The notes under the pieces are model-generated. The model was not told where the DNA came from and made no database searches. It saw only the letters and a program-made list of their open reading frames with translations. The position numbers and the translations under genes are program-made. A DNA stretch of 45,218 bases from an uncultured Dehalococcoidaceae bacterium (GTDB taxonomy: Bacteria; Chloroflexota; Dehalococcoidia; Dehalococcoidales; RBG-16-60-22). Within the stretch, counting starts at the first letter, position 1; every line of letters begins with the position of its first letter. The DNA lies in assembly GCA_964422155.1 (NCBI GenBank), contig CAYQZZ010000011.1, positions 1 to 45,218 of the forward strand. Direction: 5' to 3'. Below, in pieces: positions 13,486 through 40,584 of this stretch.

Positions 13486-13497
13486 TAAATTAAGCCA

Positions 13498-16846: not shown

Positions 16847-17369
16847 TTATTTACCTCCTTAAGTATTGGCAATCGCCTTCAGGCTTGATTTCGCTCACAT
16901 GATATCGTCACCTCCTGTTTATGATTTTTGTATGTGTCGCATTAATATGCTTAAAAAAACTGTCAATACTCCTTGCTTTGTTCCAACCTATTGACCTAAA
17001 TTACAACAATATTTAGCGAATGTCAATCGGGTGGAAGGTTAAGTAGTAAGTGATATTTATTAATTATGCTTTACCTGAGCGTGGTAACCTTGGGAGCGGT
17101 ATAAATATTATTTCCCGGGTGATTTAACGACATGCCGGGTCCGGAGCTTTATATACGATAATTGAGGAATAAGGTCAGTTTGGCCGTCCGTTATGGGCTT
17201 AATTCCTACTTCTTCATAGGTATCAATCTACTATCTTGTTACCTTCGCTAATATGAAAAGAAAATGCAACCCTTCATTTACAGGTTAATAATGTCTGCCG
17301 CTTTGGGCTTAGGGCTAACGTCATTCTTTCTCTGCCTAACAAGAATAGGTTTACGTTCTTCGCGAGACA

Positions 17370-18833: not shown

Positions 18834-19059
18834 ATCCCACTTTCCCCGTGTATTTTACCGCAAACGGGGTTTCTATGCGTTGCGGCTTTGACATTAATTT
18901 AAAGCGCCAAAAAACCAACCCATCAACTAAAAATAGATGGATTCGTACTAAACCGGGACAAAAGCACGAAACACCTATCCGTTTGACCTATGTTACCGGC
19001 TTCTTCAAAGGTAACTAAATGAGTTTTTATTACCTCAAATACCCCAGAAAGTTTGGTGT

Positions 19060-20922: not shown

Positions 20923-20967
20923 ATCGAAGATTCAACTAAATGTTGAACATTCGAATGGAGGATAATA

Positions 20968-22731: not shown

Positions 22732-22842
22732 TGCGAGGACGGAACACGCGGGCTTCCGGATAAGCCGGCTGATTATGACTAATTTTTCACGGGCTGTTTG
22801 CCGTGCGTTTAATAATTCGGAATTTAACCAATAAGGAGAGAG

Positions 22843-24534: not shown

Positions 24535-24567
24535 TTGCTTATAATACGGAAAGGAAAAGTTTTTATC

Positions 24568-25734: not shown

Positions 25735-27528
25735 TTAGGGCGCACCAGCATCATAAACAATTTTACCGCCAACGACAGTCATTAAATTCTGTATATCTCC
25801 TATCTCCTTCGGGGAAATAGTCAAGATATCTTTGTCCAGAATACAGAAATCAGCCAGCTTGCCTACCTCGATAGAGCCCTTAATATCCTCCATATGGTTT
25901 AGCCAGGCACCCTCAATGGTGTACATGCAGATGGCTTGCTCCGCGCTAAGCCCTTGGAAAATAGCCCCCTGTATCCCCAGTTTCCAGTCTGGCCCGGCAC
26001 AAGGAGCATCAGAGCCTCCAGCAACATGAACGCCACGATCAATCAACTCCTTTAATCCCGATGACATTGATCCTGTTGGCATAGCTGGCATACCGCCAAA
26101 CAGTTGCATAAGTTCAAGCATCATACCCGGCTGGGTCGAAATACCAATATCGCATTCAGCCATACTTCTTGCCTTTTCTACTGATATGGCGGCACCATGT
26201 ATAATATAATGGCGTAGACCTTTCGGATTATTATGCTCAGCCTTGATGAAGCTGTCGGCGCAGACATCAGAGGCTCTGTCACCGATAGCATGGATACCTA
26301 CCTGAACACCGAGTTCATGGGCATAGGCGATGATGTTTGCCAGAGATTGGATGCGTTCTTCGTCTGTCTCTCCAGGCGAATTAAGAGTCCCGTAGCTGCC
26401 GTCAGGGTACGGCTTATAGTTCCAGGAAGTCCGCATCATCGGGTTGCCGTCAGCGAAGAACTTGGTACCGGATATTCTTAGCCACCCATTGTCAAAGCTG
26501 CCGTGCATGTCGGCGGATGTTAGGCCTTTTTTTATTTCGTCAATATTGCAGGTATTATAAGGGGTAAAGACCTCCAAAATGCTGACCCGCATCGTCAGCT
26601 TGCCCTCATTGTAGATTTCCTGGTAAGCGCGGATACACTCATCGTCCCAGGTCCCTTGATAATCCCCGCGGGTGCCGGGCCCCAGGGCGCCGTTGGTAAT
26701 GCTGGTTATCCCCAGTGCATTGAGCTCACGCATGGCCGCCAGGGCTGCCTGTTTTTTATCCTCCAAATCATAAGCGGGAAGTGCTTTTTTTACCACCAAA
26801 TCCATAGGCATACCCTTTAGTAAACCAGTAGGTTCTCCGGTGTCTCTGTCTTTGACAATCTCCCCTATCGCAGGGAACGGAGTATCCTTGGTGATGCCAA
26901 CAATCTCAATGGCCTTACTGTTAAGTAAATCAACGGGTGGTAAAAAGCTAAAGTAACCGACAGTAAGACAGACTGGATTATTCGGAGATACCGGGTCTAG
27001 ATCCCACCGTGTTGGGAGCTTGGCTGGGTATTGCTTATATTCCTTTATAGCATCCAAATTTAGCCCTATACCAATTATCCACTCGCCTGGTTCAACCGTT
27101 TGAGCCTTCTTCTCCACTGCAATCACGATATCAGCAATTGTCTTTATTTTCGGGTCGGTGAGATCAATTACTAAAGGAGACTTCTCACTGCCGAAGAGAA
27201 TGCTATGAACATGCGTATCATTGATTCCTGGAAGCATGGTTTTACCCTTAAGGTCCAAAACCTTCGTATTCTTGCCGACTAACGTTTTAATCTCCTCATC
27301 CGTACCAACGGCGATAATTTTGTCGCCTTTCACCGCCACCGCCTGCGCGATAGAGAAGCTTTTGTCAACCGTGACTACCTTGCCATTGTAGATGACCAGA
27401 TCAGCCGCTTGCTCCTCAGGAATATTCGCCGGTGACAGCCCTCTGTCGCAGGATGTCATCAGGGGTAAAGAGACTAAAAGCAGGGCCATAAGGAGACCAA
27501 GGAATAGTACAACCACTCTGTTTTTCAT
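25735..27528 (-). CDS. Amidohydrolase family protein (amidohydrolase_3-type), secreted lipoprotein
   Basis: About 597 aa from MKNRVVVLF... AAGGAGGG RBS. Signal/lipobox ...LPLMTSC. Metal-binding HxH near the N-terminus (NDTHVHS) and a C-terminal D-containing motif typical of amidohydrolases. The ORF-track start at 27597 is an upstream extension. Confidence 0.85.
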   Translation of the reverse strand: MKNRVVVLFLGLLMALLLVSLPLMTSCDRGLSPANIPEEQAADLVIYNGKVVTVDKSFSIAQAVAVKGDKIIAVGTDEEIKTLVGKNTKVLDLKGKTMLPGINDTHVHSILFGSEKSPLVIDLTDPKIKTIADIVIAVEKKAQTVEPGEWIIGIGLNLDAIKEYKQYPAKLPTRWDLDPVSPNNPVCLTVGYFSFLPPVDLLNSKAIEIVGITKDTPFPAIGEIVKDRDTGEPTGLLKGMPMDLVVKKALPAYDLEDKKQAALAAMRELNALGITSITNGALGPGTRGDYQGTWDDECIRAYQEIYNEGKLTMRVSILEVFTPYNTCNIDEIKKGLTSADMHGSFDNGWLRISGTKFFADGNPMMRTSWNYKPYPDGSYGTLNSPGETDEERIQSLANIIAYAHELGVQVGIHAIGDRASDVCADSFIKAEHNNPKGLRHYIIHGAAISVEKARSMAECDIGISTQPGMMLELMQLFGGMPAMPTGSMSSGLKELIDRGVHVAGGSDAPCAGPDWKLGIQGAIFQGLSAEQAICMYTIEGAWLNHMEDIKGSIEVGKLADFCILDKDILTISPKEIGDIQNLMTVVGGKIVYDAGAP

Positions 27529-27665
27529 CGCATCCCTCCTTCGGTTCAGTGAACCATGGTTTATTGGTGCGTCGTCAGCATTTATAGCGCAACCCACGTA
27601 ATAGACAATTTAGTTAATTGAATTCTTCTTATCAAGTCAAGTGGTTATATTGTAGCTTTTATCGC

Positions 27666-28256
27666 TTAGTGGCCCTCATGGGGAACGTCATACCTCGGCG
27701 TGAGTGCAATAATCACCATGGTGATGGCTTTGTCCACCTTCTTGAAGTTGAGGGGGCAGTGCGGCATGCCTTTGGGGAAGAAGAGCACCGTGGGGGAGGT
27801 GATAACGTACCTTTCTTGGTCCTCCCCCTGGCCGATATAGCATTCAATCTCGGCATCGAAATCCGAGATGTCCTGTGGGTCAGAGCCGAAGAACATCATG
27901 AATTCCTCAAAGTCGTGTGAGTGCGGGAAGGGGACCATATCCACGGGCTTGGTGATGAAGCGATATATGAAGCGGCAATTGGCGTTTTCGTAGTTTTCCC
28001 CTTGCAGGTCTATCCACGGCCCATGTATCGGCCCCGGCTCTATTGGTAGCGGGGTCACATACTTAGCGTACTTTCCGGCTGTCATCACTCCATTAGTCTC
28101 CTCATTGGCCGAGGCCGTAGGTGCCTTCACCGGCACTGCCGCCGGCTCTGTTGTCGGCACGGGGGTCGTGGTACAGCCAGTAAAGATGCTTACTGATAGC
28201 GCCAGTACCAGAAGCCCTGCCAGCAAAATACTTACCAACTTCTTTTTACTTTTCAT
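27666..28256 (-). CDS. Cupin-like small protein family member 1 (lipoprotein version)
   Basis: 196 aa. Signal plus lipobox ...SIFTGC. Core shares PHSHDFEEF, DFDAEIE and P.G..H.P motifs with 33374-33799 and 36312-36872. Confidence 0.7.
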   Translation of the reverse strand: MKSKKKLVSILLAGLLVLALSVSIFTGCTTTPVPTTEPAAVPVKAPTASANEETNGVMTAGKYAKYVTPLPIEPGPIHGPWIDLQGENYENANCRFIYRFITKPVDMVPFPHSHDFEEFMMFFGSDPQDISDFDAEIECYIGQGEDQERYVITSPTVLFFPKGMPHCPLNFKKVDKAITMVIIALTPRYDVPHEGH

Positions 28257-28610
28257 TTGATTCCTCTATTTGCCCTATTCTACCACTGTCCAGGCAAAGC
28301 CTACTAACATATTCTCCAAGAAGGGTATGAAGTGGCTCTACTCTTTAGAAATGACCACAGAAGAAGATGATATGTTATCTATTTGAGTCTCCATAGTCAA
28401 GGTAATAATAGTAAGCTTGGTTGCCTATTCTGGCGTAGAGTTCAGCTACGTTTGATGTGGCATGTTTCAGAGGATGCTTGAACTCTGTAAATTGTCGGGA
28501 AATTTGAGATAACAATTGGGCGTTTTGTTGAATTATCGCTGTGGAGGTTTTATTATTATCCCAGTGCCGGGATTTTACTTAATTCAGTTTGCCAAAACTT
28601 GAAGAAGGTC

Positions 28611-29066
28611 ATGGAAAGAGAACATCGTATTTCTGCCGGGGCTATTATCATACAGGGAGATAAGATTCTGCTTGTAAGGTATAACAATACCGATGGGACG
28701 AGTTTCCTGGCTGGACCGGGAGGTGGCGTTCTAAGTAATGAAGGCATTTACCAAGCTGTAGTAAGAGAAGTAAAAGAAGAGACCGGGCTTGAAGTTAGTC
28801 CTTACAGAGTACTCTTTGTTGAAGATTTACTTTCTCGGCGATATAGAATAGTAAAGATTTGGCTTCTCTGCAACGTTATCGGTGGACAACTGGCAAATAC
28901 TCAGGGGGCGCTCGAAGAAGGCATTATCGAGGCTAGATGGTATCGCAAAGACCAATTAGAAAATGAAGTGGTTTATCCACCGGTGCTCTTAAGTCATAAT
29001 TGGGACACTTTTTTCCATGATAATTGGGAGTCGAAGTATTTGGAACTAAGGATGACTAATTTCTGA
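28611..29066 (+). CDS. NUDIX hydrolase
   Basis: NUDIX box GGGVLSNEGIYQAVVREVKEETGLEV. The ATG at 28611 is preceded by GAAGAAGG; the ORF track offers an alternative TTG at 28599. Confidence 0.8.
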   Translation: MEREHRISAGAIIIQGDKILLVRYNNTDGTSFLAGPGGGVLSNEGIYQAVVREVKEETGLEVSPYRVLFVEDLLSRRYRIVKIWLLCNVIGGQLANTQGALEEGIIEARWYRKDQLENEVVYPPVLLSHNWDTFFHDNWESKYLELRMTNF

Positions 29067-29391
29067 CTATATCTTGAGCCAGCCCGACTCGGGTAACAAA
29101 AGTCCATTCTGTGCAACTGACCTCTATTTGTGCAAGAGTTAAATACCCGGTTAGGAATTGCTCTTAGACCAGCTCCCGATAACTGGATATTTGCTAACGG
29201 ATTTGCTAACGAACTTGGTGGCATGGGGTCACCAGACGATATAAAACCCCCTTATTATGCCCGGTTTTAGCTATAAAACGGCGCTACACGACACCCGAAA
29301 ACACGGGGCGGGACGGCCTGCAAAGGACTGCAAAACCCCAATTCGGCGGTCCGAATCCGCCCGTCGCCTCCATCCCCTTCAAAGATGCCCG

Positions 29392-29436
29392 ATATAAAAA
29401 AGAAAGACGGGTTGCCATTTGCTCCGGCAACCCGCC
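29392..29436 (-). terminator. Rho-independent terminator of the 29459-29716 gene
   Basis: On the minus strand: GGGTTGCC-ggagcaaat-GGCAACCC followed by TCTTTCTTTTTTAT, immediately downstream of the stop. Confidence 0.6.
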
Positions 29437-29458
29437 CATACCATGCCAATCACGTGCC

Positions 29459-29716
29459 TTACGATAAACAGGCTTCTATCTCATCCTCGTAGACGACTAT
29501 CTCTTTCCTCTCCTTGCCCACGCGCACGTTATAGATATAAAAGACCTGGCCGGTACGCGGGCTTATCCAGTAGAAATTGGAAACTTCACCCACCTGCCCG
29601 GCATACAGATTAATATCATTTTCGCGCTGCGTTAAGCCCTTCTCGCTGACAGGCCGTATGATAACCCTCTGCCCTTTTACGTACCTGGGCTTTATGACAT
29701 TCTGTTTCATCGTCAT
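29459..29716 (-). CDS. Hypothetical small protein (85 aa)
   Basis: Clean ORF with a strong intrinsic terminator downstream. No family recognised. Confidence 0.55.
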   Translation of the reverse strand: MTMKQNVIKPRYVKGQRVIIRPVSEKGLTQRENDINLYAGQVGEVSNFYWISPRTGQVFYIYNVRVGKERKEIVVYEDEIEACLS

Positions 29717-29813
29717 TTGCGCATAATAATACTAAATTAATTATTTGTCAATATTTTTTACAAAATATTTCCGCAATTTTAAGTTAATTAAATACTCAAT
29801 AGAGTTTTTTCTT

Positions 29814-30335
29814 CTAGTGCCAGCCAAAGCCCTGCCGCAAGCCCCGGACATAAGAAGCCTGCCCGGCATGCTGTAGGCCGTCGCTCAGCGTACCGATAAG
29901 CATCATCCCGAAATTCGGCGGCGGTTTAAATGGCGTGCCTTCGATAACCCTGTCGAAATCTGCTTTTTTCAGGGTTGGGAAGTACTTCTGCGACCTCTCC
30001 AGCACTGCCTTATGGTAGCCGAGCAGCGTCTTGACATCGGGAGATTTGAATTTGGCCAGGTCGGCTGGCTTCTGGCCGGTGCCATTGTCCTTGGGGTCGG
30101 CCGGCCTGCCGAACTTTTTATGCCACCCGCCTTTAATCCAGATTTGTTCCTGACTCATGAAAGAAGAAATTTGCACGTCCTGCCAGCGTGTCAGGTGCCA
30201 GACCAGCCAGCCAATGCTGTTGCAGTCCGGCTTGGGCTGCCAGTTCAGGTCCTCTTCATCAAGACCTTCCAGCGTGTATTCCAGCGCCCTCAAGATGCTA
30301 CCGTAACCACCCGATAACATGTCATGTAACTCCAT
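29814..30335 (-). CDS. DinB/YfiT-like (DinB_2) family protein
   Basis: Start MELHDMLSGG... with AAGGAGG RBS 5 nt upstream. WLVWHLTRWQD motif typical of the DinB_2 four-helix-bundle metalloenzymes. The ORF-track start at 30392 is an extension. Confidence 0.75.
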   Translation of the reverse strand: MELHDMLSGGYGSILRALEYTLEGLDEEDLNWQPKPDCNSIGWLVWHLTRWQDVQISSFMSQEQIWIKGGWHKKFGRPADPKDNGTGQKPADLAKFKSPDVKTLLGYHKAVLERSQKYFPTLKKADFDRVIEGTPFKPPPNFGMMLIGTLSDGLQHAGQASYVRGLRQGFGWH

Positions 30336-30544
30336 AGATACCTCCTTATTGCCTCTCGTCAGCAAGATATTATATTTTATCACTTGAGTCAAGTGCCTGT
30401 AAGCGTCCGGCGCCTTAAAAAAACTTTTCCCGTAACCTGATTTGTTATATAATCTCTTTTGGGTCTCGCGCCATTTTTTCCCGAGGGTTAAATCAGATTA
30501 AAAACGATAGCGTTTTTTCCGCGATAAGAGAAATCAACGAAATA

Positions 30545-31198
30545 TTGTCCCTCACCAACGAGCCTAATAAGCTCGTTAATATGGTCCTGGATACGCTTCC
30601 CCAGGTCCTGAAGATAGAATGCTGCTGGATACAGACTTTCAACGACAGAAAACACCAGCAGCTGCTCCTGGCCGCCGAGCGCGGTTTCAGCCCTGAAATG
30701 CGGCTGGAAGTAAATTCTATGGACATGATTCACGGTTTCAGCGAGCAAATCATCGGGCTGGGGCAAAAAATCGTCATCCCTGACCTGTACAATGATGGAT
30801 TATACGGGCTATCTTCATTTAAAAAGACCGGCTATAAATGGCTGGTGGCCGCCCCGCTGATGACCTACCGGGTACACGGTATCCTGGGAATCGCCTCCCG
30901 TAACAGAAAGTTGCTTAAGAAAGAAACCGCCGAGCTTATCATGGTAATTGCCGGTCTTATCGCCCATGCTCTCAGCAAAGCTTACCTTTCCCTCAAGTCT
31001 TCAGCGCCGGAAGAGCCTGTAAAAGCGCCTGCCCGGGAAGTTGGGGAAGGACTGGAGACCCCTGATAAAAGTCCGGAAGTATCTCTGGATATAACAGATT
31101 CCGGAATCTCACCGGGAAAAACCCCCGTAAAACCCCCTGATGCCACCTTTCACAGCCATACCCGCCGGATGGAGACATTCCGCCGCTCCCACCATTGA
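30545..31198 (+). CDS. GAF domain-containing protein with low-complexity Pro/Ser/Glu-rich C-terminal tail
   Basis: GAF-like core (LLLAAERGFSPE...KIVIPDLYNDG...WLVAAPLMTYRVHGILGIASRN). Start codon uncertain: TTG at 30545, no in-frame ATG/GTG upstream back to the stop at 30416. Confidence 0.6.
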   Translation: MSLTNEPNKLVNMVLDTLPQVLKIECCWIQTFNDRKHQQLLLAAERGFSPEMRLEVNSMDMIHGFSEQIIGLGQKIVIPDLYNDGLYGLSSFKKTGYKWLVAAPLMTYRVHGILGIASRNRKLLKKETAELIMVIAGLIAHALSKAYLSLKSSAPEEPVKAPAREVGEGLETPDKSPEVSLDITDSGISPGKTPVKPPDATFHSHTRRMETFRRSHH

Positions 31199-31466
31199 GT
31201 CAGTGGAGTTCCTCCCATGTAATTATTTATCAAATTCCTCTCCCTCGATGCCTGCCTGCGCGTAGCCTGCTTGCGCTAAAGCTCTCGCCTGCCAGAGAAC
31301 TTGTTCGGCGAGCAGGTCAGCGAAGGCAAGCCGCTCCGGCGAAGGCAGGGGAGAGGGAAGGGCGAGGGTGAATATATACATCACCCCATCAATTTATGTT
31401 AATATAATGAGAGGGTCGAAAAAAGAAAAGCCGATAATATCACGGCAGAAACAGGAGAAAGGAAAA

Positions 31467-32333
31467 ATGATTGCACTATATATTATCATCGCTATAGCTA
31501 TTGCCCTCCTTTTCGCCTCGATGAGAACAGTCAGACCAACTGCCCGGGGCTTGATAGAAAGGTTCGGCAAGTACAACAGGTTCGCCCAGCCCGGGCTTCA
31601 TTTCATTATTCCCTTTAGCATAGAAAGACTAATCAGGGTGAATATCACGGAAATGATGGTCAGCTCGGAAAAACGGGAAATTATCACCGCTGACAGCCTT
31701 AATGCGGAAGTGGACTCTAACGTCTACTTCAAGGTTAAAACGGAAGAAGATAATGTGAAAAAGTCGGTTTATGGAGTCTACAATTACCGTGAGCAGATTG
31801 TCGCCCTGGCTAAAACCACGCTGCGTAATATCATCGGCACGATGACCCTCAAGGAAGCCAACAGCGAACGTAATAAAATCAATCTGGCATTGTACGAACA
31901 GCTGGCCAGAGAGACCGGACACTGGGGCATTGAAATCGTCAGGACGGAGTTAAAAGAAATTCAGCCCCCGCAAGCCGTGCAGGAAGTCATGAACAGCGTC
32001 GTTGTCGCCAATAACCAGAAAATCGCCGCCCAGGATTTTGCCACCGCCACCGAAACCAAGGCGGACGGTGAAAGAAGGGCGGCTATAAAAATCGCCGAAG
32101 GCGAAAGACAGGCGAGGATTTTGAGAGCCGAGGGTGAGGCGCAGGCGATTGCGCTGGTCAATGAGGCAGCCGATAAGTACTTTGTCGGCAATGCCCAGCT
32201 GCTGCGGAAATTGGAAGCCGTCGAAAAATCTCTGTTATCCAATTCCAAGATTGTTTTACCCACCGGCCAGAGCCTGGTGAACGTTATCGGTGACTTAGCC
32301 GGCATAACCACGAAACAACCAAAGGATAAATAA
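31467..32333 (+). CDS. SPFH/band-7 domain protein (stomatin/HflC-like)
   Basis: Start MIALYIII (TM anchor) with AGGAGAAAGG RBS. SPFH core. C-terminal coiled-coil A/E-rich region (AIKIAEGERQARILRAEGEAQAIALVNEA). Confidence 0.85.
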   Translation: MIALYIIIAIAIALLFASMRTVRPTARGLIERFGKYNRFAQPGLHFIIPFSIERLIRVNITEMMVSSEKREIITADSLNAEVDSNVYFKVKTEEDNVKKSVYGVYNYREQIVALAKTTLRNIIGTMTLKEANSERNKINLALYEQLARETGHWGIEIVRTELKEIQPPQAVQEVMNSVVVANNQKIAAQDFATATETKADGERRAAIKIAEGERQARILRAEGEAQAIALVNEAADKYFVGNAQLLRKLEAVEKSLLSNSKIVLPTGQSLVNVIGDLAGITTKQPKDK

Positions 32334-32377
32334 CTATCTTTCCTTAATACTTGTTTCTTGGTACTTGGTATTTCCCC

Positions 32378-33184
32378 CTATCGGGGTGGCGTTGGAGGCG
32401 GTGCCGGTGCCGGCGGTAAAAGCGGCAGTCCTCCGGCCACATACAGGGCTTGACCCGTAACGTATGCCGCGAGTTCCGAAGCCAGGAATAAGGCGGCTCC
32501 GGCCATATCCTCCGGAGTTCCCACTCTCTGCATGGGTACTTTTTTACCCAGCATATTAAAAAAGCCGTCCCGCTCTTTTTCTGTCATCTTCCCCACCATG
32601 GCGTCATAGAAGTTTGTCCTGATAGGCCCCGGCAATATACAGTTTACATTGATGCCCAGCGGCGCCAATGCGTTAGCCAGGTCGGTGGTGAAGCCGATAA
32701 CCCCGGCTTTAGCGGTATTATAATGAATCTCATGAGCCGGGGGCTGGACGGCGCCTATGGAAGAAAGATTGATGATTTTACCGTATTTCCTTTTCTTCAT
32801 GTGAGGGACGACATACTTGCAGAACAGGAAGTCGCTTTTCAGGTTTAAGGCGAAGGTTTTATCCCAGGCTTCTTCGGTCAGGTCTTCAACAGGAATATGC
32901 GCGGCTATCCCCCCGGCATTATTAACCAGGATGTCTATCTTGCCGTATTTTTTTACGACCTTCTCCACGGTATCGCCGACCTGCTGGCCGCTGGTGACAT
33001 CGCATTTGATGAAGATGGCGTTGCCGCCTTTTTTCTTAATTTCGGCGACGACTTCCTCTGCTTCCTTTATGGCGATATCGGCGATGGCGACGGCACAGCC
33101 TTCCTCCGCGAATTTAAGGGCCATGCCCCTTCCCATTCCTTTAGCGCCCCCGGTGATGATGGCTACTTTGTCCTTTAATAACAT
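32378..33184 (-). CDS. SDR family oxidoreductase with Pro/Ala-rich C-terminal tail
   Basis: 268 aa. ITGGAKGMGRGMA motif. AGGAGG RBS. Paralog of 2928-3710. Ends ...LLPPAPAPPPTPPR. Confidence 0.9.
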   Translation of the reverse strand: MLLKDKVAIITGGAKGMGRGMALKFAEEGCAVAIADIAIKEAEEVVAEIKKKGGNAIFIKCDVTSGQQVGDTVEKVVKKYGKIDILVNNAGGIAAHIPVEDLTEEAWDKTFALNLKSDFLFCKYVVPHMKKRKYGKIINLSSIGAVQPPAHEIHYNTAKAGVIGFTTDLANALAPLGINVNCILPGPIRTNFYDAMVGKMTEKERDGFFNMLGKKVPMQRVGTPEDMAGAALFLASELAAYVTGQALYVAGGLPLLPPAPAPPPTPPR

Positions 33185-33295
33185 TTTTCCTCCTTGATTT
33201 ATTTATTGAATCACCAATAACCAAGATATAAGTACCAAACAAATCTCAATATTCAATAATCAATGTCTAAAATTTTGGTTATTTGAATTTGGTTA

Positions 33296-33372
33296 TGGGT
33301 CATTGTTTGGTTATTGTTTCTTGTTACTTGGTTATTGTCTGGTTATTGTCTCTTGTTATTTGATTATTTTCC
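33296..33372. repeat. T/G-rich short tandem repeat tract (TTGGTTATTGTYT-like units)
   Basis: ttggttattgtttcttgttacttggttattgtctggttattgtctcttgttatttg. A related tract sits on the other flank of the same SDR gene (32340-32375, cttgtttcttggtacttggtat). Confidence 0.6.
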
Positions 33373-33373
33373 A

Positions 33374-33799
33374 CTAGTCCGTTGTATTGCCCACTCTTGA
33401 GTATTTTGCCGTCACGGCGACGTCCACGAACAGGACAGGTTTGTTTATCCTGGCGAAGTTTATCGGGCCGTGCATCAGGCCGGCCGGGATATATGCCGCC
33501 GTGGGCGACTTGATAATATGCTTTTCCTGCTCTTCGCCCAGCGTAATCTCGATTTCTGCATCGAAATCCCTGGCGTTATTCGGGTTTGCCGAGAAAAAGC
33601 TCAAATACTGGGGGAACTCATGCTTGTGGGGCTGGGATATCATCAGGTGGGGGCCTGTGATGTAAATGCTATCGATGGACAGGTGCCCCCCACCGAACTT
33701 GTCCAGGTGCCTGGTGCTGGTAACGTGGGAGCCCTCGTGTTTCGGGTCCTCTTTAACGACTTCCGTGGTAAGATATTTATCGTATTTCGTTTTGGCCAT
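33374..33799 (-). CDS. Cupin-like small protein family member 2
   Basis: 141 aa starting MAKTKYDKY. AAGGAG RBS. Motifs PHKHEFPQY, DFDAEIEITLGEEQEKHIIKSPT, PAGLMHGP. Confidence 0.7.
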   Translation of the reverse strand: MAKTKYDKYLTTEVVKEDPKHEGSHVTSTRHLDKFGGGHLSIDSIYITGPHLMISQPHKHEFPQYLSFFSANPNNARDFDAEIEITLGEEQEKHIIKSPTAAYIPAGLMHGPINFARINKPVLFVDVAVTAKYSRVGNTTD

Positions 33800-33889
33800 G
33801 TTTCACTCCTTATCTAAAATACACTTAACATAACTCTGGAAACAATTCACGCCTGCCCAACTTCGAATTGTTTCCTCATTTAATTCTTT

Positions 33890-34858
33890 TCACAGTGGCT
33901 TCAGGCGCGGGTGCTTCTTGATTGTGTACCAGTACGTGTTCCAGCCAACTTTATCAAGCGGTATAAGCCTGCGAAAACGCTTTTTAACCTCTGCCTCTTC
34001 GGCAATCTCGATGAAGCCCGGGGCAACATGCTCGTTGATAACTTTGACGATGGTTTCCCAGTCGACCTCTATAGCACCCCGGGGGCAAATCTGCTCGCAG
34101 TACCAGCACCTGTCGCACCTTTTCCTTTGAATCGGCGGGGATGTGGACATATTAATGCTGTTGGTGGGGCAGTTGTCTATGCAGAGTGTGCATTTGGGAT
34201 ACAGGCATTTCTCTCTATTGAACCTGAAGTCGAAGCTCCGCAGGCCTGTCTGCTCCAGCCGCTCGGCATTTGGCGGCGCTCCGGCCTTACGTCCCTTTTT
34301 CAATTGCCAGCTATTGCCCCGCCCCGGATAGAGCTCGTCATATTCGCTTCCTCGCGGCAATGCGGGAACCAATCCTGTGTCTCCCGCATATATCTTGCTA
34401 CTTCGCTCCGCCATTTCCCTGCCGAAGCTTTTCGCCTCGTCAAGGTCGATGGCATCGGGATGACCGTCGGTAAAATAGGGCTTGGGTTTCTCCGGCATGG
34501 TAACGCTGCAGTACCAGTTCTTCCAGCCGATAACGGTGAGGCCCTTCTGTGTCATCATGGGCACCACCCTTGCCAGGAAGCGGCCGGGGAGAAGGCCGTG
34601 GGTGCAGAAAGCGAAACCGTGCTTCCCATCCACGGCGTTCATGCTATATTCGATGAAATTCATGAGATTGGCCGGTTCCCGCCGGTGCCAGACCGGGGCG
34701 CCCAGTCCGATTAAATCATATTCGGCCAGGTCTCCGGTATCCACGTCCTGCAGTCGGGCGAGGTCACAGGGCATGAGTTCACTAATGCCGGATTGTACAG
34801 CCTCGGCAATTTTTTTGGTATTTCCCGTCTGTGAGTAGTAAATTACAATACTTTTCAT
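33890..34858 (-). CDS. Flavodoxin-like domain fused to a 2x[4Fe-4S] ferredoxin domain
   Basis: N-terminus MKSIVIYYSQTGNTKKIAEAV (flavodoxin FMN-binding motif). C-terminus CTLCIDNCP...CDRCWYCEQICP (two CxxCxxCxxxCP motifs). Confidence 0.8.
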   Translation of the reverse strand: MKSIVIYYSQTGNTKKIAEAVQSGISELMPCDLARLQDVDTGDLAEYDLIGLGAPVWHRREPANLMNFIEYSMNAVDGKHGFAFCTHGLLPGRFLARVVPMMTQKGLTVIGWKNWYCSVTMPEKPKPYFTDGHPDAIDLDEAKSFGREMAERSSKIYAGDTGLVPALPRGSEYDELYPGRGNSWQLKKGRKAGAPPNAERLEQTGLRSFDFRFNREKCLYPKCTLCIDNCPTNSINMSTSPPIQRKRCDRCWYCEQICPRGAIEVDWETIVKVINEHVAPGFIEIAEEAEVKKRFRRLIPLDKVGWNTYWYTIKKHPRLKPL

Positions 34859-34916
34859 CTTATTTTAAAGGTGTTTAGTAATATTCCTGTTTTTTATAAT
34901 GTGTCTACACTTTTAC

Positions 34917-35009
34917 TGTCATCCTGACCCCGATGCAATCGGGGGAAGGATCCGCATCCCTCCCGTCAAAGAACGGATTCTTCAGTCGCTGCGCTCCTTC
35001 AGAATGACA
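34917..35009. repeat. MITE-like structured repeat copy A (TGTCATYC ... GAATGACA termini)
   Basis: About 93 bp, near-identical to 36206-36300. Terminal inverted repeats tgtcatcctga/tcagaatgaca. Internal hairpins ccccgatgcaatcggggg and ggatccg...cggattc. Confidence 0.6.
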
Positions 35010-35033
35010 ATCATATAACACCTTTCATGTCGA

Positions 35034-36185
35034 TTATTGCGGTATCATCTCCGGCAGGCCCGGCAAAGCGGTGGTCATCCACCTGGTGGCATCCCTGCCG
35101 ATGAAATACATGTCTCCAATCATGGTAAACGGCGCTTTCCCGCCTTTGCATCTTACCATAGGATGGACGGCATAGACCTCATCGGTCAGGATGGTCCACT
35201 CCATGTAGTCGCGCTCATGGGGACCGGCGGTAATATAGGGGGCGTCCCCATAAGACAGCCCGACGGCATGGCCCAGCTTATCGCATTCGAAACCCCAGTC
35301 GTTTACCAGATCCTCAATTTTTTGACCGGCTTCCGTAATTTCCAGGCCGGGGCGGAACTCCCGCACTATCATCTGTCTCATTTCAGCCCAAAGAGAGAAC
35401 ATTTTTTTGTACACCCCCTTGGGTTCCTCCCACCAGTAACCGCGTATCATTTGAGCGCCATAGCCCGCGTTACGGGTGAACTCCGGGGAAAACGTCACCG
35501 GGTTCGGCTTCTGTATCACCGTCGGGCCGGGACGGTAAGGATAAGCCGCCTCCGGTCGACTGTGTATTAAAATAATCCTGTCGATAATATCGTGGGCGGT
35601 CAGGACTTCATTGGCTTTATTGACGACCTGTTCTTCGGTGAGGCCGGGCTTCAAATTAGCTAGGAAGGTGTAATGGGCCAGGTCAGAGATGCGGATGGCG
35701 TTATCCATGATAGCCAGCTCCTCGCGGCTCTTGGGACCTCTTATTTCACCGAAAAGACGATGCGCTTCCACGAGCCTGACATCGGGGCAAAGCTCGGAAA
35801 AAGTCTGGTATTCGAACACCGGCCAGAAGCGGAAGCTGTCTATACCGACCTGTGTTTTCTGGTGATTGAGGTCGATTATAATTTTAGCCGCGTCTATGGC
35901 CAGGTTAAATGAGGAGCGGATATTCTCCGTTTCCACCCAGCAGCCCTGTTTGACCAGCTGCTCGCCCGTCATGCCCGTGTTGCTGGGGATTAGAAAAACT
36001 GGCTCGCCATCGACCGGGAAAATCACCATGTTCTGCTTGCTGCCCCAGATATGCGTCAGGTAGTGGACAGGCACGCCCAGCTGGGTGCCCCCGTAGACGA
36101 TAAGCGCCGAAAGCCCGGCTTTCTGCAACGTCTTCCGCAGCAACGACCAGCGGCGTCCTTTTTCTTTCAGACTAAGTTCCGGCAT
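35034..36185 (-). CDS. M24 family metallopeptidase (Xaa-Pro dipeptidase/creatinase-like)
   Basis: 383 aa. Creatinase/prolidase N-domain plus pita-bread catalytic domain. GGGGAGGTGA RBS. Bracketed by two copies of the MITE-like repeat. Confidence 0.85.
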   Translation of the reverse strand: MPELSLKEKGRRWSLLRKTLQKAGLSALIVYGGTQLGVPVHYLTHIWGSKQNMVIFPVDGEPVFLIPSNTGMTGEQLVKQGCWVETENIRSSFNLAIDAAKIIIDLNHQKTQVGIDSFRFWPVFEYQTFSELCPDVRLVEAHRLFGEIRGPKSREELAIMDNAIRISDLAHYTFLANLKPGLTEEQVVNKANEVLTAHDIIDRIILIHSRPEAAYPYRPGPTVIQKPNPVTFSPEFTRNAGYGAQMIRGYWWEEPKGVYKKMFSLWAEMRQMIVREFRPGLEITEAGQKIEDLVNDWGFECDKLGHAVGLSYGDAPYITAGPHERDYMEWTILTDEVYAVHPMVRCKGGKAPFTMIGDMYFIGRDATRWMTTALPGLPEMIPQ

Positions 36186-36205
36186 GGGTCACCTCCCCTC
36201 GGTAT

Positions 36206-36300
36206 TGTCATTCTGACCCCGATGCAATCGGGGGAAGAATCCGTCTCCCAGGATTACGGATTCTTCGTCGTCCGCCTGAAGCGGACTCTTCAGAATGACA
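36206..36300. repeat. MITE-like structured repeat copy B
   Basis: TGTCATTCTGACCCCGATGCAATCGGGGGAAGAATCCGT...ACGGATTCTTC...CCGCCTGAAGCGG...TCTTCAGAATGACA. Nested palindromes. Same orientation as copy A. Confidence 0.6.
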
Positions 36301-36311
36301 AAAAATAATAA

Positions 36312-36872
36312 TTACCACTCGCGTTTCATCTTCTTCGCCAGCTTGAGAACCCTCTCCTCGCTTTCATAGCCCTGGTCGATAAACAGCAGATTGTCTCTCT
36401 CTTCATCGGACACCAGCTCCTGGTAAGATTTCTCCGTGTGTGTGGGCGATTGTTCGACGGTTACCATGATAAACGGCCTCGTTACTTTTCTAATTATCCA
36501 GGGTCCATGTATAAAATCGGCAGGTAAATAGACCAGGTCGGAGGTAGTGAGAATGTGCTTTTCCAGCTCCGGGCCCAGACAAAATTCAACCTCGCCGCCC
36601 AGGTCCAGCGGATTTTCCGGGTCTGTCCCGAGATGTATCACTACTTCGGGAAATTTATGTTTATGCGGTCCGTGCCCCATCTGCTCCCATGAGGAAACTC
36701 CGGGCAATCCCTGGGGAACGACAGGTACCCAGTGAATGTAATACTGGTGGCTGCCCAGATAGGCGTTATTATTGACTTTATCATCCGCAAAGGCTACAAT
36801 CGCACCGGTGCCGGCCGGGTTCCACGGCCTTGGTCCGGATAAAATATATTTGTCGTATTTTGTTTTCGCCAT
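36312..36872 (-). CDS. Cupin-like small protein family member 3 (with about 50-aa C-terminal extension)
   Basis: 186 aa starting MAKTKYDKY. AAGGAG RBS. Motifs PHKHKFPEV, GGEVEFCLGPELEKHILTTSD, PADFIHGP. Confidence 0.7.
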   Translation of the reverse strand: MAKTKYDKYILSGPRPWNPAGTGAIVAFADDKVNNNAYLGSHQYYIHWVPVVPQGLPGVSSWEQMGHGPHKHKFPEVVIHLGTDPENPLDLGGEVEFCLGPELEKHILTTSDLVYLPADFIHGPWIIRKVTRPFIMVTVEQSPTHTEKSYQELVSDEERDNLLFIDQGYESEERVLKLAKKMKREW

Positions 36873-36883: not shown

Positions 36884-37297
36884 TTACTTTTTGGTTACCT
36901 CGACAATGCCGGCGTCAGCGTCAACCTTAACCCAATCACCGGTCTTGATTACCTCCAGCGGGTTTTTATCCAGTTCGGTCATGGCCGGGGCGTGTAAAAG
37001 TACAGCGGATAAAGCGGCCTTGGTGGTCATATCGTTGAAAATAAGAGCCTTGGGCGCGGTGCCTACCAATCGGGTAGCATGGAATGCCATCGATGTCCCC
37101 GAAGAACCCTTGGTCCCGGGAAATACGAGCACCTTGTCCTTAAAACTCTGCCCTCTTAACTCGTGGCGCCTTTCCGTAATGATGCCTTTAACCGCGTCAA
37201 TACCGCCCCATCCGGATATGGTATCTCTGGTGACGAGCGCTTCGCCCTCAACACAACCGCCAACGACTTTCCGGCCGTGAAGCACTATTTTCTTCAT
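36884..37297 (-). CDS. Aconitase X swivel-domain subunit (DUF126)
   Basis: Start MKKIVLHG. Its ATG overlaps the TGA stop of the upstream large subunit (ATGA). GGAAGGGAGAA RBS. DUF126-like length and composition. Confidence 0.75.
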   Translation of the reverse strand: MKKIVLHGRKVVGGCVEGEALVTRDTISGWGGIDAVKGIITERRHELRGQSFKDKVLVFPGTKGSSGTSMAFHATRLVGTAPKALIFNDMTTKAALSAVLLHAPAMTELDKNPLEVIKTGDWVKVDADAGIVEVTKK

Positions 37298-38610
37298 TTG
37301 AGTTCTCCCTTCCATTTCCCGGTGACAGCCGCCTCGATACAGTCTTTTTGCGAACCGAACCAGGTAGGGAAGCCGAGCATAGCGGGCATATAGTGCGCGT
37401 GTTTGGCCGAATCGGTAGCCGCCGTCTTGACACCCTTGGGTGAGATATGGCTGATGCAGGGGCAGGTATCGGTCATCAGGACAGCTCCGGCTTTTTTAAT
37501 AACGTCCGTCAGTCCTTCCTGGTCGGCGATAGTTTTGAGCGCATGCGGCGTAAAAATCCAGAGGTTAACGTTAGCGTGGACATGCTTGCCCTCCAGCAGC
37601 CGGGCCGCGTTCCATACCTCTTCCAGCGTATAGTGAGGGCAGCCCAGCATAATAAAGTCGACATTAGGGTCGGTGGCAGAAGTCAGGTTGTCATAAGCCT
37701 TCTTCCTCTCCGCCTTACCGAATTTCAGCTTCGCGACGGGTTTTTTCTTGCCGAAAGCCTGCTCCAGGGAATTCGCTTCCGGCGTGAAGCCGACGACGTG
37801 GTACAGCTCGACGCCGCCCGAAGAGGCGGCCGCGGCGCCGTGATGCTTAAGCCGGGCGATATTGGGGGCTTTACGTACACCATTAATCACGGGAACGTGC
37901 TCCTGTACTATTTCCCCGACGTAATAGCCCAGAAGACCCCAGTCCATAACGCTCTCCGGCTGGTATTCAACCTCCACCAGATGCGTGCCCAGACGGTTTT
38001 CATCGAGGTGATAGCCCCAGTAAGGCGTTTTGCCTACCAGCATGGAGGCCGTGGCGCTCTCCATCCCCTCGATATTGGTGCGTCCGCCCAGCACGGAATT
38101 GCAGTAGATGACGGCCGATGATTCTATCCAGGCGCAGTGCTCACCCATGACAGGGACATTGCCAAGAAGGTAAGGGGTACAACTATGCATAAGCTGCATA
38201 CCGATGCGGGCGCAGACTTTTTCCGAGAGGACGCCCATTTCATGGCGTTCGGGGGAGATGCCCTGGATTTGCCAGTTTTCCGGGTCCATTTCCCGTATCA
38301 GGCGGCAGGTGTAGACCTTAGCGCGGGGGATTTCAAAGGGCTCATCGCTATCAAGGTACATGCGTGAGAGGGCGGCGTCAACTTCATTTATTGTGGCCCC
38401 GGGTTTCGGCGCTGTGTAAGCGCCGGCGGAAATCGAAACACAGACGTTGTTAGTATCGACCAGCCTCTCCGCTCCCAGGGCTTCCCCGTACTTTACGAGC
38501 AGCTCCATGGCCTTCTGATAAGCAATGCCTTCACTGCCTTCCAGCAGAGCCTTTTCTTCGTCGGTCAGTTTCATATTACGTTTACCATCCTGTATAAAAA
38601 TCCCCCTCAT
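37294..38610 (-). CDS. Aconitase X catalytic subunit (DUF521)
   Basis: About 430 aa. DUF521-type N-terminus (LTDEEKALLEGSEGIAYQKAMELLVKYGEALGAERLVD). Start ambiguous between 38610 and 38574. Translationally coupled to the small subunit. Confidence 0.8.
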   Translation of the reverse strand: MRGIFIQDGKRNMKLTDEEKALLEGSEGIAYQKAMELLVKYGEALGAERLVDTNNVCVSISAGAYTAPKPGATINEVDAALSRMYLDSDEPFEIPRAKVYTCRLIREMDPENWQIQGISPERHEMGVLSEKVCARIGMQLMHSCTPYLLGNVPVMGEHCAWIESSAVIYCNSVLGGRTNIEGMESATASMLVGKTPYWGYHLDENRLGTHLVEVEYQPESVMDWGLLGYYVGEIVQEHVPVINGVRKAPNIARLKHHGAAAASSGGVELYHVVGFTPEANSLEQAFGKKKPVAKLKFGKAERKKAYDNLTSATDPNVDFIMLGCPHYTLEEVWNAARLLEGKHVHANVNLWIFTPHALKTIADQEGLTDVIKKAGAVLMTDTCPCISHISPKGVKTAATDSAKHAHYMPAMLGFPTWFGSQKDCIEAAVTGKWKGELK

Positions 38611-38722: not shown

Positions 38723-40417
38723 TTAATCGAAGTCTTCCCAGCGCGCCGGCCATCCTGCCCCTTTATCAGCCTGGAGGGCCAATTTAGCATATATTGCCAG
38801 CAAACCGGTTACTTTAGACTGGGAAGGCGGCTTCCATTGCGCCTTTCTTTTCTTCATTTCCGCTTCAGATACCTCAACGTCAAGCTTGCGATCGGGGATG
38901 TCCAGGTTAATGCGGTCACCATCTTTGAGCAGAGCGAGCGGTCCGCCCACCTGGGCCTCCGGGCAGACGTGGCCGATAGAAAGGTAGCCCTGGGTGAACC
39001 CTGAGAAACGACCGTCCGAAACAACGATGACGTCCTGGATACGTTTTACTTTGAGCATTGACAACGCGCTCAGGCATTCTGTAAAGGCGGGACCTCCGCG
39101 GGGGCCCTGGTAGCGAACGACGAGGGCATCGCCGGGCTTGACCTTACCCTGCATGGTCCCTTCGGCTGCCGCTTCCAGCGAGTCGAAGACGCGGGCGGTA
39201 TAAACCCTCTTCAGCAGGTCCTTGTTCTCGACGACGGTATGCCGGACAACGGCGCCTCTCGGGGCAAGATTGCCTTTAAGCACGGCTATCGCCCCTTCCG
39301 GCCAGATAGGGTCCTCCAGAGGTTTTATTACTTCGATATCGTCACATGTTACGTCTGCCAGATTTTCACCGACCGTCTTGCCGGTAACGGTGATGCAGGT
39401 CTTATCGAGGTATTTCTCGATGCGTTTCATGACTGAAGGCGTCCCGCCCGCTTTATGGTAATCATAGAGAACGTGCGGGCCCGATGGAGCTACCGCGCAC
39501 AGGGCCGGGACCCTGCGGCTTACCTCGTCCCAATCATCGAGAGTCAGGGGAATTTCCGCTTCATGGGCATAGGCTTGCAGGTGCGCCACCGAGTTGGTGC
39601 CGCCGCATATCGCCATGTCCACCGCTATGGCATTTTTTAATGAATTAAGAGTGATGATATCCCTCGGTCGGATATTCCGCTTGACCAGTTCCAGGATTTT
39701 TTCTCCGGTCTCCTTGGCCTGCCATATTTTCTCGGCGGAAACGCCGGGAGAGGTGCTGGTACCAGGCAGGGCGATGCCCATCCCCTCGGTGAGCACGGCC
39801 AGGGTATTTCCCGTCGTCATCTCGTTGCAGGCCCCGGCGGAAGTGGCGCAGCAACTGGTAATTTCCTGCATTATCTCGCCGATTTCTTCAATAGAAAGGG
39901 GTTTATCCTTATCCATCATCTTTTGCTGCACGATGGACTGGCCCCTGACGAAGCCCAGGCGTGCCCCTTCATAGTCCGAAGGCATCATCTGCCCACCGCC
40001 GATGAAAATAAAGGGTCGGTTCAGGCGTAGAGCGGCCAGAATCAACCCGGGGATAATCTTGTCGCAGGAAGCCAGACCTACCCAGCCGTCGCACCAGCTT
40101 ATGTATAGAGAGGACTCGGCTGCCGCCAGGACGGCTTCGCGCTGGGGCATATCATAAAGCATATCGCTCTGGAGCTTATGGGGTACGGAACATAGTCCGG
40201 GAACGTTGATTTCAAACGGCATTCCTCCTGCCATGCGGATGCCGGCCTTGACCCCATCCGCCACTGCCCTGAGATGCACGTGACCCGGCGACTGCTCGCT
40301 CCAGGAATTGATAACGGCAATCCTGGGAAGCGAAAGCTCTTTGGCGGTAAAACCCATTGCCTTGAAGATGGCGTGATGGCCATAAGACCTGAGGTTAAAT
40401 GCGGGTGGTGTTGTCAT
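38723..40417 (-). CDS. IlvD/EDD family dehydratase (dihydroxy-acid or sugar-acid dehydratase)
   Basis: Start MTTPPAFN... with GGAGGC RBS; the ORF-track start at 40453 is an extension. IlvD/EDD features, including a CDKxxP Fe-S ligand region (SCDKIIPG) and a C-terminal swivel domain. Confidence 0.85.
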   Translation of the reverse strand: MTTPPAFNLRSYGHHAIFKAMGFTAKELSLPRIAVINSWSEQSPGHVHLRAVADGVKAGIRMAGGMPFEINVPGLCSVPHKLQSDMLYDMPQREAVLAAAESSLYISWCDGWVGLASCDKIIPGLILAALRLNRPFIFIGGGQMMPSDYEGARLGFVRGQSIVQQKMMDKDKPLSIEEIGEIMQEITSCCATSAGACNEMTTGNTLAVLTEGMGIALPGTSTSPGVSAEKIWQAKETGEKILELVKRNIRPRDIITLNSLKNAIAVDMAICGGTNSVAHLQAYAHEAEIPLTLDDWDEVSRRVPALCAVAPSGPHVLYDYHKAGGTPSVMKRIEKYLDKTCITVTGKTVGENLADVTCDDIEVIKPLEDPIWPEGAIAVLKGNLAPRGAVVRHTVVENKDLLKRVYTARVFDSLEAAAEGTMQGKVKPGDALVVRYQGPRGGPAFTECLSALSMLKVKRIQDVIVVSDGRFSGFTQGYLSIGHVCPEAQVGGPLALLKDGDRINLDIPDRKLDVEVSEAEMKKRKAQWKPPSQSKVTGLLAIYAKLALQADKGAGWPARWEDFD

Positions 40418-40584
40418 AGATGCCTCCATGAAATTAAATTGCGGTACACACATTCTAGCAAGTTATGAAAAAGGGGGCAAGGAAGATATTTTATAGTGGT
40501 ATCTTGACATTATATCATTATTTATGTTATTGTTTACTAAGTAGACTAAAATAGTCAACAATACTTTTACCCAGAGGTGAGTCG

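Follow-up and report, generated by a model that had tools for sequence, protein, structure and literature searches.

A cupin family of Dehalococcoidia and other anaerobes, represented by three paralogs in one locus, one of them a predicted lipoprotein

Cupins of the RmlC-like superfamily are very well known, and the proteins described here share their barrel, the motifs HxH(x3)E/Q and PxGxxH(x3)N, and the occurrence of both single-domain and fused bicupin forms. They differ in that the flanking glycines of cupin motif 1 are absent or shifted, and in adding a K-Y-x-K-Y segment and an E-x-E...G...E signature. PDB searches with family profiles of three and of 44 sequences retrieved only 7eqk, at E ~1. 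This entry, probably StnK3, is titled 'novel non-heme iron epimerase/lyase', and MarH (6j4b, 6j4d) is among the Foldseek matches. Sequence similarity is marginal (E ~1), and these structures derive from antibiotic (maremycin) biosynthesis, whereas the cupins here lie in catabolic clusters of uncultured anaerobes, as paralog pairs and arrays. The bicupin isomerases BacB and AerE show no relationship to the family that HMMER can detect in the sequence, and have a different pathway context. KdgF and KduI, with KduD, resemble one of our proteins, B, in operon logic: there a small 3-His + Gln cupin shares its pathway with an SDR reductase, and B is followed by an SDR gene. The metal site of KdgF consists of three His and one Gln (PMC11381880), and cupin-SDR clustering is typical of the uronate catabolism pathway (PMC12838403).

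Three paralogs in one gene neighbourhood

Within the window, the whole 45,218-nt stretch of DNA analysed, three minus-strand ORFs named A, B and C lie where a preliminary description had placed them, all with good ribosome-binding sites. These and the neighbouring features are:

20968..24534, plus strand: two tandem UGSC-fusion proteins (20968-22731 and 22843-24534), one in-frame TGA each
25735..27528, minus strand: Amidohydro_3 (YtcJ-like) metal-dependent hydrolase, predicted lipoprotein MKNRVV...LMTS-C (Pfam E 3e-84)
27666..28256, minus strand: cupin paralog A, 196 aa, predicted exported lipoprotein form (ORF; E 2e-24 to B; family HMM match)
27753..27776, minus strand: A cupin motif 2, PKGMPHCP (His166; sequence, family conservation)
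27903..27926, minus strand: A cupin motif 1, PHSHDFEE (His112, His114, Glu118; sequence, family conservation)
28173..28256, minus strand: A predicted signal peptide and lipobox, MKSKKKLVSILLAGLLVLALSVSIFTG-C28, followed by a Thr/Pro-rich linker (sequence reading; kept in orthologs)
32378..33184, minus strand: SDR oxidoreductase immediately downstream of B (Pfam adh_short_C2 E 4e-66)
33374..33799, minus strand: cupin paralog B, 141 aa, minimal single-domain form, cytoplasmic
33464..33487, minus strand: B cupin motif 2, PAGLMHGP (His110; sequence, family conservation)
33524..33559, minus strand: B family-specific acidic strand and loop, AEIEITLGEEQE (Glu82, Glu84, Gly88, Glu92; family conservation)
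33608..33631, minus strand: B cupin motif 1, PHKHEFPQ (His58, His60, Gln64; aligns to PHVHEVDE of 7eqk)
33890..34858, minus strand: flavodoxin/4Fe-4S ferredoxin fusion (EFR1 family), between C and B
35034..36185, minus strand: M24 creatinase/prolidase-like hydrolase, between C and B
36312..36872, minus strand: cupin paralog C, 186 aa (ORF; E 5e-17 to B; orthologs upstream of B-type genes in 12 loci)
36501..36524, minus strand: C cupin motif 2, PADFIHGP (His122), Asp in place of the usual Gly (sequence)
36645..36668, minus strand: C cupin motif 1, PHKHKFPE (His70, His72, Glu76; sequence)
36884..38610, minus strand: AcnX small (36884-37315) and large (37294-38610) subunits, directly upstream of C (Pfam)
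38723..40453, minus strand: IlvD/Edd-family dehydratase, head of the same-strand gene run (532 bits)

The neighbours named in the preliminary description, namely Amidohydro_3, an SDR, the flavodoxin-4Fe4S protein and two AcnX subunits, were all recovered. The AcnX proteins match Pfam AcnX (E 3e-123) and AcnX_swivel (E 3e-23) and score 245 bits against the NCBIfam model for cis-3-hydroxy-L-proline dehydratase, under its 700-bit cut-off; the IlvD/Edd-family protein is likewise below the curated IlvD cut-off (618 bits). C starts 11 nt past the stop codon of the AcnX small subunit with a ribosome-binding site of its own (AAGGAG), and no clear operon boundaries emerged from a promoter/terminator scan within the gene run 40453-32378. 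SDR genes lie on both sides of the UGSC-fusion genes, at 19951-20922 and 24535-25515. Scans of the window for tRNAs and Rfam families gave no matches.

A, B and C are true paralogs, with similarity far above chance. In BLASTP comparisons (database size 1e6), A and B are 35% identical over 135 aa (E 2e-24), B and C 32% over 141 aa (E 5e-17), and A and C 28% over 79 aa (E 1e-8), so the resemblance first noticed from motifs is significant in a proper alignment; tblastn found no fourth copy in the window. Of the three motifs proposed as common to all, only PH[SK]HxF[EP][EQ] is, the other two being confined to A and B: C reads DLGGEVE in place of DFDAEIE and PADFIHGP in place of PxGxxH[GC]P. B and C do open with an identical MAKTKYDKY, and mature A has the equivalent KYAKY at residues 62-66. 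C also has extra sequence inserted ahead of the barrel and ends in a charged tail of ~45 aa.

The structure models are confident, and the fold is a double-stranded beta-helix (jelly-roll) cupin barrel, as had been suggested from the sequence. The motif 1 core HxH(x3)E/Q is present throughout, with the flanking Gly residues of G(x)5HxH(x)3-4E(x)6G absent or shifted, and the fourth ligand is Gln in B and Glu in A and C. The motif 2 consensus PxGxxHxxxN is matched exactly by A (PKGMPHCPLN) and B (PAGLMHGPIN), while C (PADFIHGPWI) retains the Pro and His and replaces Gly by Asp and Asn by Ile. His and Glu/Gln are spaced as in a metal-binding cupin, as previously remarked, and occupy canonical ligand positions conserved across the family.

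A is a predicted bacterial lipoprotein, in agreement with the earlier reading. Its N-terminus has an n-region KSKKK (MKSKKK), a hydrophobic core, a lipobox with an invariant Cys (IFTG-C28) at the end of the signal peptide, and a Thr/Pro-rich linker before the cupin domain at approximately residues 58-190. Signal peptide and lipobox are kept in four orthologs (P0144, P0145, P0149 and P0159), with the variants IFIGC, IFTGC and IFSGC; the exported lipoprotein form is rare in the family. The Amidohydro_3 gene lies 137 nt downstream of A, and the same pairing is seen again in two other loci (L089 and L093). The mechanical call of its ORF runs to 27597, and the start at MKNRVV is backed by a called gene in L089.

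A widespread family and its gene contexts

Neither Pfam nor NCBIfam has a model that matches A, B or C at E<=10, one spurious hit at 0.26 aside, and all public copies of the family are labelled 'hypothetical protein', which bears out its description as uncharacterised; no publication on it was found in the literature on cupins of Dehalococcoidia. The nearest curated model, Pfam Cupin_2 (PF07883), does not match A, B or C at E<=10 and weakly matches 20 of 142 diverse relatives (best E 1e-9). The proteins form a new family inside the cupin superfamily, ordinary in fold and lacking a curated model.

The family comprises at least 1,326 clusters at 50% identity and is distributed across Dehalococcoidia, Acidobacteriota, Desulfobacterota/Syntrophus, Bacillota and other groups, mostly anaerobic uncultured bacteria. 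Genomes often hold many copies, including arrays of 4-7 paralogs in some Dehalococcoidia. The preliminary description had proposed a lineage-specific expansion, a view that does not hold: the clusters span several phyla, C and B form a syntenic pair and not a local burst, and the 28-35% identity among the three paralogs indicates that the duplications are old.

The shared architecture is one beta-barrel domain of ~135 residues that opens with the conserved K-Y-x-K-Y and carries the metal-site motif His-x-His-x3-Glu/Gln ... His, with a family-specific E-x-E, G and E between the two cupin motifs. Among 226 representative domains, the B residues Glu82 and Glu84 are each kept in 79% and Gly88 and Glu92 in 88%. 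The His triad is present in 77% of these domains and missing from 23%, a loss that, like the many non-enzymes among cupins, speaks against an enzymatic reading. Fused bicupins account for approximately one third of family members. A Rosetta-stone reading, in which the fusion represents C plus B, was rejected on 106 fused proteins: they mix domain types and orders, and in the most frequent distinct class an A/B-like domain lies N-terminal to a C-like domain, the reverse of the C-B gene order.

C and B form a conserved syntenic gene pair across genomes. C-type orthologs lie upstream of B-type genes in 12 loci, often separated by a few nucleotides, among related loci that were gathered with a B-type alignment and are thus biased towards B-type relatives. 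The pair is usually trailed by an SDR, with a UGSC selenoprotein gene nearby. The SDR cluster (24 loci) is among the two most frequent family neighbours, and the UGSC-fusion family, as clusters c0 (24 loci) and c2 (13 loci), is the commonest cupin neighbour elsewhere. The flavodoxin/ferredoxin insertion between C and B recurs in L025, L044, L018 and L031, an M24 hydrolase cluster lies near cupins in nine loci, and IlvD/Edd-family genes lie near C/B pairs in L030, L032 and L044. The adjacency of C and AcnX is confined to close relatives of the window and is absent in L007. Outside the Dehalococcoidales core (C, B, SDR and UGSC protein), gene contexts are highly variable, which argues against one single substrate. 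The large paralog arrays (L066, L067, L074, L075 and L092) are heterogeneous, with no common contextual theme.

Proposed function and rival readings

The preliminary description left a choice between a metalloenzyme and a substrate-binding protein, and the evidence leans towards an enzyme. The analysis directly supports the paralogy, the fold, the conservation of the ligands, the size and taxonomic spread of the family, its synteny and the export signals; metal binding, reaction class, heterodimer formation and substrate class we infer. Our preferred reading, to which we assign a probability of roughly 0.5, is that these cupins are divalent-metal, non-redox enzymes acting on oxo- or hydroxy-carboxylates, with a C/B heterodimer and an exported A. 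With a bound divalent metal (Fe, Mn, Ni or Zn) as Lewis acid, A, B and C would catalyse an isomerisation, epimerisation or lyase-type step, on substrates supplied by the adjoining dehydratases or hydrolases of anaerobic catabolic clusters. The adjacent SDR may carry out an NAD(P)-dependent step before or after the cupin reaction. C and B would probably associate with the geometry of the fused bicupin members, and A would present the same domain outside the membrane, beside the lipoprotein amidohydrolase. As the family has no characterised member and the nearest solved structure in sequence lies at E ~1, the reaction class rests on fold neighbours and context.

Those fold neighbours include the binding cupins AraC ligand domains, auxin-binding protein, ChrR and CENP-C, which would suit non-catalytic ligand binders of a sensor, substrate-binding or chaperone-like type, with A as an extracellular binder passing substrate to the amidohydrolase. 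The weak match of AraC_binding to three of 142 members, the domains that have lost the His triad, the paralog arrays, which fit a set of binding specificities, and the lipoprotein nature predicted for A, as in solute-binding proteins of monoderm bacteria, point the same way. We nevertheless consider such a role unlikely, as conservation of the metal triad and of three acidic residues is strong throughout the 1,326 clusters, none of 314 inspected members carries a fused DNA-binding or signalling domain, and operon coupling is tight with enzymes and not with regulators. Even less probable, in our judgement, are O2-dependent dioxygenases of the quercetinase, gentisate dioxygenase or cysteine dioxygenase type, with cleavage or oxidation of an aromatic or thiol substrate as their reaction.

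The ligand set of B, three His and a Gln, and its spacing match KdgF (PMC11381880), KdgF structures are among the Foldseek matches (E 3e-5 to 9e-5), and cupin-SDR clusters are the rule in the uronate pathway (PMC12838403), so that the SDR after B could be read as a KduD equivalent and the cupins as KdgF/KduI-type enzymes of uronate (pectin, alginate, glycosaminoglycan) catabolism. This assignment is very improbable: a PDB search with the family profile recovered neither KdgF nor KduI even at E<=10, identity in the structural alignments is 11-18%, A and C have Glu instead of Gln, and Pfam and NCBIfam scans of the window ORFs found no polysaccharide lyase, kdgK, kdgA or kduI. Membership in KdgF was rejected for want of profile-level homology and of uronate pathway genes in the window. 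The chance that the motifs resemble each other by accident, or that the ORFs are not real genes, is negligible; pairwise E-values of 1e-8 to 2e-24, hundreds of homologs conserved at the protein level, the ribosome-binding sites and the confident structure models refute it, and nothing was found in its favour.

Beyond the preferred reading of non-redox metalloenzymes, a bolder and rather doubtful extension would join C/B, the SDR and the UGSC-fusion selenoprotein into one anaerobic catabolic module, conserved across several phyla and built on a heterodimeric cupin with a reaction type new to the superfamily. The flavodoxin-ferredoxin and M24 hydrolase genes would then be optional extras, and the arrays of 4-7 paralogs a substrate-diversified toolkit for recalcitrant organic matter.

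Meaning for anaerobic catabolism

On present evidence, the family, with a standard cupin fold and a probable metal site of the usual kind, represents an annotation gap and no new principle. Anoxic sediments and aquifers are rich in Dehalococcoidia and their relatives, few of whose catabolic enzymes have been characterised, and these cupin genes are closely linked to genes for SDRs, for dehydratases and for a selenoprotein of unassigned function. A curated model and the biochemistry of one C/B pair would annotate thousands of 'hypothetical proteins' and could reveal a step of anaerobic organic-acid degradation.

Three divergent cupin paralogs

The window encodes three paralogous proteins, A, B and C, each gene with a good ribosome-binding site:

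27666-28256, minus strand, A, 196 aa
33374-33799, minus strand, B, 141 aa
36312-36872, minus strand, C, 186 aa

In pairwise BLASTP, A and B are 35% identical (E 2e-24), B and C 32% (E 5e-17), and A and C 28% (E 1e-8), which bears out the paralogy proposed in the preliminary description and excludes chance similarity as the source of the resemblance. Because identity is 28-35%, A, B and C are, judged by sequence, old paralogs. No fourth copy was found in the window by tblastn with all three queries. The motifs described earlier as common to the three are present, with two exceptions: DFDAEIE is found in A and B, but C reads DLGGEVE, and C has PADFIHGP in place of the PxGxxHGP-type motif. The identical start MAKTKYDKY is common to B and C, as first described, and has its counterpart in KYAKY within the mature part of A. 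The single lipoprotein signal belongs to A (MKSKKK...IFTG-C28) and is followed by a Thr/Pro-rich linker after the lipobox Cys28; both signal and linker are kept in A orthologs.

None of the three proteins matches Pfam or NCBIfam even at E<=10, and every public copy of the family is named ‘hypothetical protein’, in keeping with its description as uncharacterised. An AlphaFold2 model of B, built from a 44-sequence alignment, is confident (pLDDT 87.5, pTM 0.79) and nearly all beta-strand. Foldseek returned 203 PDB matches at E<=1e-3 for this model, and the listed top matches have a cupin or another double-stranded beta-helix fold; among them are TM1287, AerE/BacB, KdgF, cupin phosphoglucose isomerase and TM1459. 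The sole PDB match by sequence is 7eqk, which also occurs among the structural matches, a cupin described as a ‘novel non-heme iron epimerase/lyase’ (E about 1), with which the PHxHE and PAGxxH motifs align, and Pfam Cupin_2 is matched weakly by 20 of 142 diverse family members (best E 1e-9). Because of the model, the structural matches, the 7eqk alignment and the weak Cupin_2 matches, the cupin assignment suggested earlier is secure. The family forms a divergent branch within the cupin superfamily, without a curated model of its own, and we put the probability that A, B and C are metal-site cupins of such an uncurated family at roughly 90%.

A widespread family with a putative metal site

HMMER, run exhaustively against 1.84 billion representatives, recovered 1,326 clusters at E<=1e-3, or 861 at the stricter E<=1e-10. 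Genome matches are mostly Dehalococcoidia/Dehalococcoidales MAGs, with further matches in Acidobacteriota, Desulfobacteraceae/Syntrophus, Bacillota, Leptospirales and Pirellulales, all uncultured; the closest relative of the window is a Dehalococcoidia MAG whose B protein is 94% identical. Given this cluster count and taxonomic spread, the family is not lineage-specific, and the proposed lineage-specific expansion, with copies only 28-35% identical, does not hold. We found no paper on this family, which is new, sizeable and uncurated inside a very well known superfamily.

Among 314 inspected members, 106 are two-domain forms of about 290-310 aa, and exported forms are rare (8). Paralog clustering is a property of the family: one locus (L066) holds seven copies in 8 kb, another (L067) six, two (L074 and L075) five each, and one more (L092) comprises four two-domain copies in tandem. 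Adjacent same-strand family genes (n=39 pairs) are separated by a median of about 50 nt. The L066 array (CAZLEY010000032.1, 9321-17112), the largest seen, consists of single-domain members, five of them consecutive (14519-17112). The L092 array (DAOUDV010000234.1, a Dehalococcoidales MAG, 3787-10264) lies between two lipoprotein solute-binding-like proteins that carry (PT)n linkers; it adjoins TRAP DctQ/DctM, an SDR, a corrinoid-binding protein and two URO-D-family methyltransferase-like genes.

Alignment of 226 domains (50%-identity representatives) to the family HMM shows, in B numbering, conservation of His58 (79%), His60 (91%) and His110 (92%), together in 174 domains (77%). At the fourth ligand position, these 174 carry Glu in 108 cases and Gln in 57. 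Also conserved are Glu82 and Glu84 (79% each), Gly88 and Glu92 (88% each), Pro112 (85%) and Pro121 (88%). The full ligand set is kept in A, B and C, with Glu at the fourth position in A and C and Gln in B, so the metal-binding-cupin spacing of His and Glu noted at the outset stands, and we infer metal binding by this putative site. A few family members carry twin-arginine (RRxF) signals; the twin-arginine route exports already folded, often cofactor-loaded proteins.

Conserved gene neighbourhoods

In 12 Dehalococcoidales loci, a B-type ortholog has a C-type ortholog upstream (42-98% identical to C). The two are directly adjacent in six, where their spacing runs from an overlap of one base to a gap of about 50 nt; in the rest, and likewise in the window, M24 and/or flavodoxin-ferredoxin genes lie between them. 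This conserved pair, the large paralog arrays and a recurrent link to UGSC-fusion genes, probable selenoproteins, go beyond the preliminary description. The UGSC-type gene also adjoins family members that are more distant, found in Acidobacteriota, in a deltaproteobacterium and in a Bacillota MAG.

Recurrent neighbour families from clustering of genes around family loci
SDR, usually directly after B: 24 loci
Domain of about 447 aa, no Pfam match: 24 loci
Small UGSC ORF, ahead of the about 447-aa domain: 13 loci
Band_7: 12 loci
M24/creatinase-like: 9 loci
MarR: 8 loci
Aldehyde:ferredoxin oxidoreductase: 8 loci
Flavodoxin-4Fe4S: 7 loci

The redox and hydrolytic neighbours named earlier are present: SDR, flavodoxin-ferredoxin and AcnX genes in the C/B run, and an Amidohydro_3 hydrolase 137 nt past A. 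The run is as follows:

40453-32378, one strand: IlvD/Edd-family dehydratase, AcnX large subunit, AcnX small subunit, C, M24, flavodoxin-ferredoxin, B, SDR

The AcnX small-subunit stop codon lies 11 nt before the C start. The large subunit of this two-subunit AcnX (36884-38610, minus strand) scores 245 bits, under the 700-bit cut-off of the cis-3-hydroxy-L-proline dehydratase model, so its substrate probably differs from that enzyme’s. The IlvD/Edd-family dehydratase scores 532 bits, under the IlvD cut-off of 618.

The pairing of A with Amidohydro_3 recurs in two related loci (L089 and L093) and is absent from the more distant L090. The hydrolase ORF (25735-27597, minus strand) was called mechanically from a GTG at 27597. 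Its true start is likely the ATG at 27528 (MKNRVV...), which gives a signal peptide with lipobox LMTS-C, so the hydrolase, like A, is a predicted lipoprotein.

The window’s UGSC-fusion genes lie in a mirror-like cassette (19951-25515):

19951-20922, SDR
20968-22731, plus strand, UGSC-fusion protein, single in-frame TGA at 21355-21357 (...GVAG-TGA-PGC...)
22843-24534, plus strand, UGSC-fusion protein, single in-frame TGA at 23224-23226 (...GVGG-TGA-DGC...)
24535-25515, SDR

Each fusion gene is one continuous frame whose N-terminal part matches UGSC (Pfam PF24696; NCBIfam ‘UGSC family (seleno)protein’); for the C-terminal part (~430 aa, GWTDGLPI motif), no Pfam model or PDB relative was found. 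These are probably tandem UxxC selenoproteins of 587 and 563 aa, split by ORF callers. The hairpin after each TGA is no more stable in folding than shuffled sequence (z -0.65, -0.15). An earlier paper predicted the UGSC family and also its fusion to an ‘Unknown_1’ domain (PMC2398784). The SDR plus UGSC-fusion unit is the commonest cupin-family neighbour in other genomes (24 loci).

Elsewhere, an AIR-synthase-related gene (43579-44643, plus strand), which matches HypE, ThiL and SelD weakly and below their cut-offs and may encode a SelD-like selenium- or sulfur-activating enzyme, adjoins a homocysteine-biosynthesis (HcyBio) gene and a PLP enzyme (CysK-like); a homolog lies near a C-type cupin in another genome (L007). 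Positions 1-19000 look like an anaerobic organic-acid catabolism island, encoding FAD-binding_2 and aldehyde:ferredoxin oxidoreductases, an SDR, an ATC-hydrolase-like protein, an MmgE/PrpD-family dehydratase, an RND transporter, TRAP DctP/DctM and a B12-binding radical SAM enzyme.

Candidate function

Structurally, the single domain is nearest to non-redox enzymes, among them an epimerase/lyase, the BacB/AerE isomerases, KdgF and a sugar-phosphate isomerase, that act on carbonyl or carboxylate substrates with the metal as Lewis acid. Family hosts are mostly anaerobes, and neighbour genes encode oxygen-sensitive functions. Genes for carboxylate catabolism are plentiful in the window (a TRAP transporter alongside dehydratases of the PrpD, AcnX and IlvD/Edd families); these dehydratases yield oxo-acids, typical bidentate ligands of cupin metals. 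Structural relatives, anaerobic hosts and neighbours together make a metal-dependent step of isomerase, epimerase or lyase type the preferred reading; it would be coupled to the neighbouring SDR. C and B may form a heterodimer with bicupin-like geometry, and A, as an extracytoplasmic form, would act together with the amidohydrolase. We give this enzyme class and the C/B pairing about even odds.

An O2-dependent dioxygenase would fit the type of site, but the biology is anaerobic. A non-catalytic binding role is less likely: conservation of the metal and acid residues is strong, and fusion to a signalling domain is seen in no member. KdgF/KduI-type uronate enzymes are a further, unlikely reading: the KdgF site of three His and Gln (PMC11381880) is that of B, the fourth ligand being Glu in A and C, and the uronate pathway has the same cupin-SDR operon logic (PMC12838403); however, these enzymes have no sequence relationship to the family, and uronate genes are absent from the window. 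The family is of value mainly as an annotation and enzymology target.
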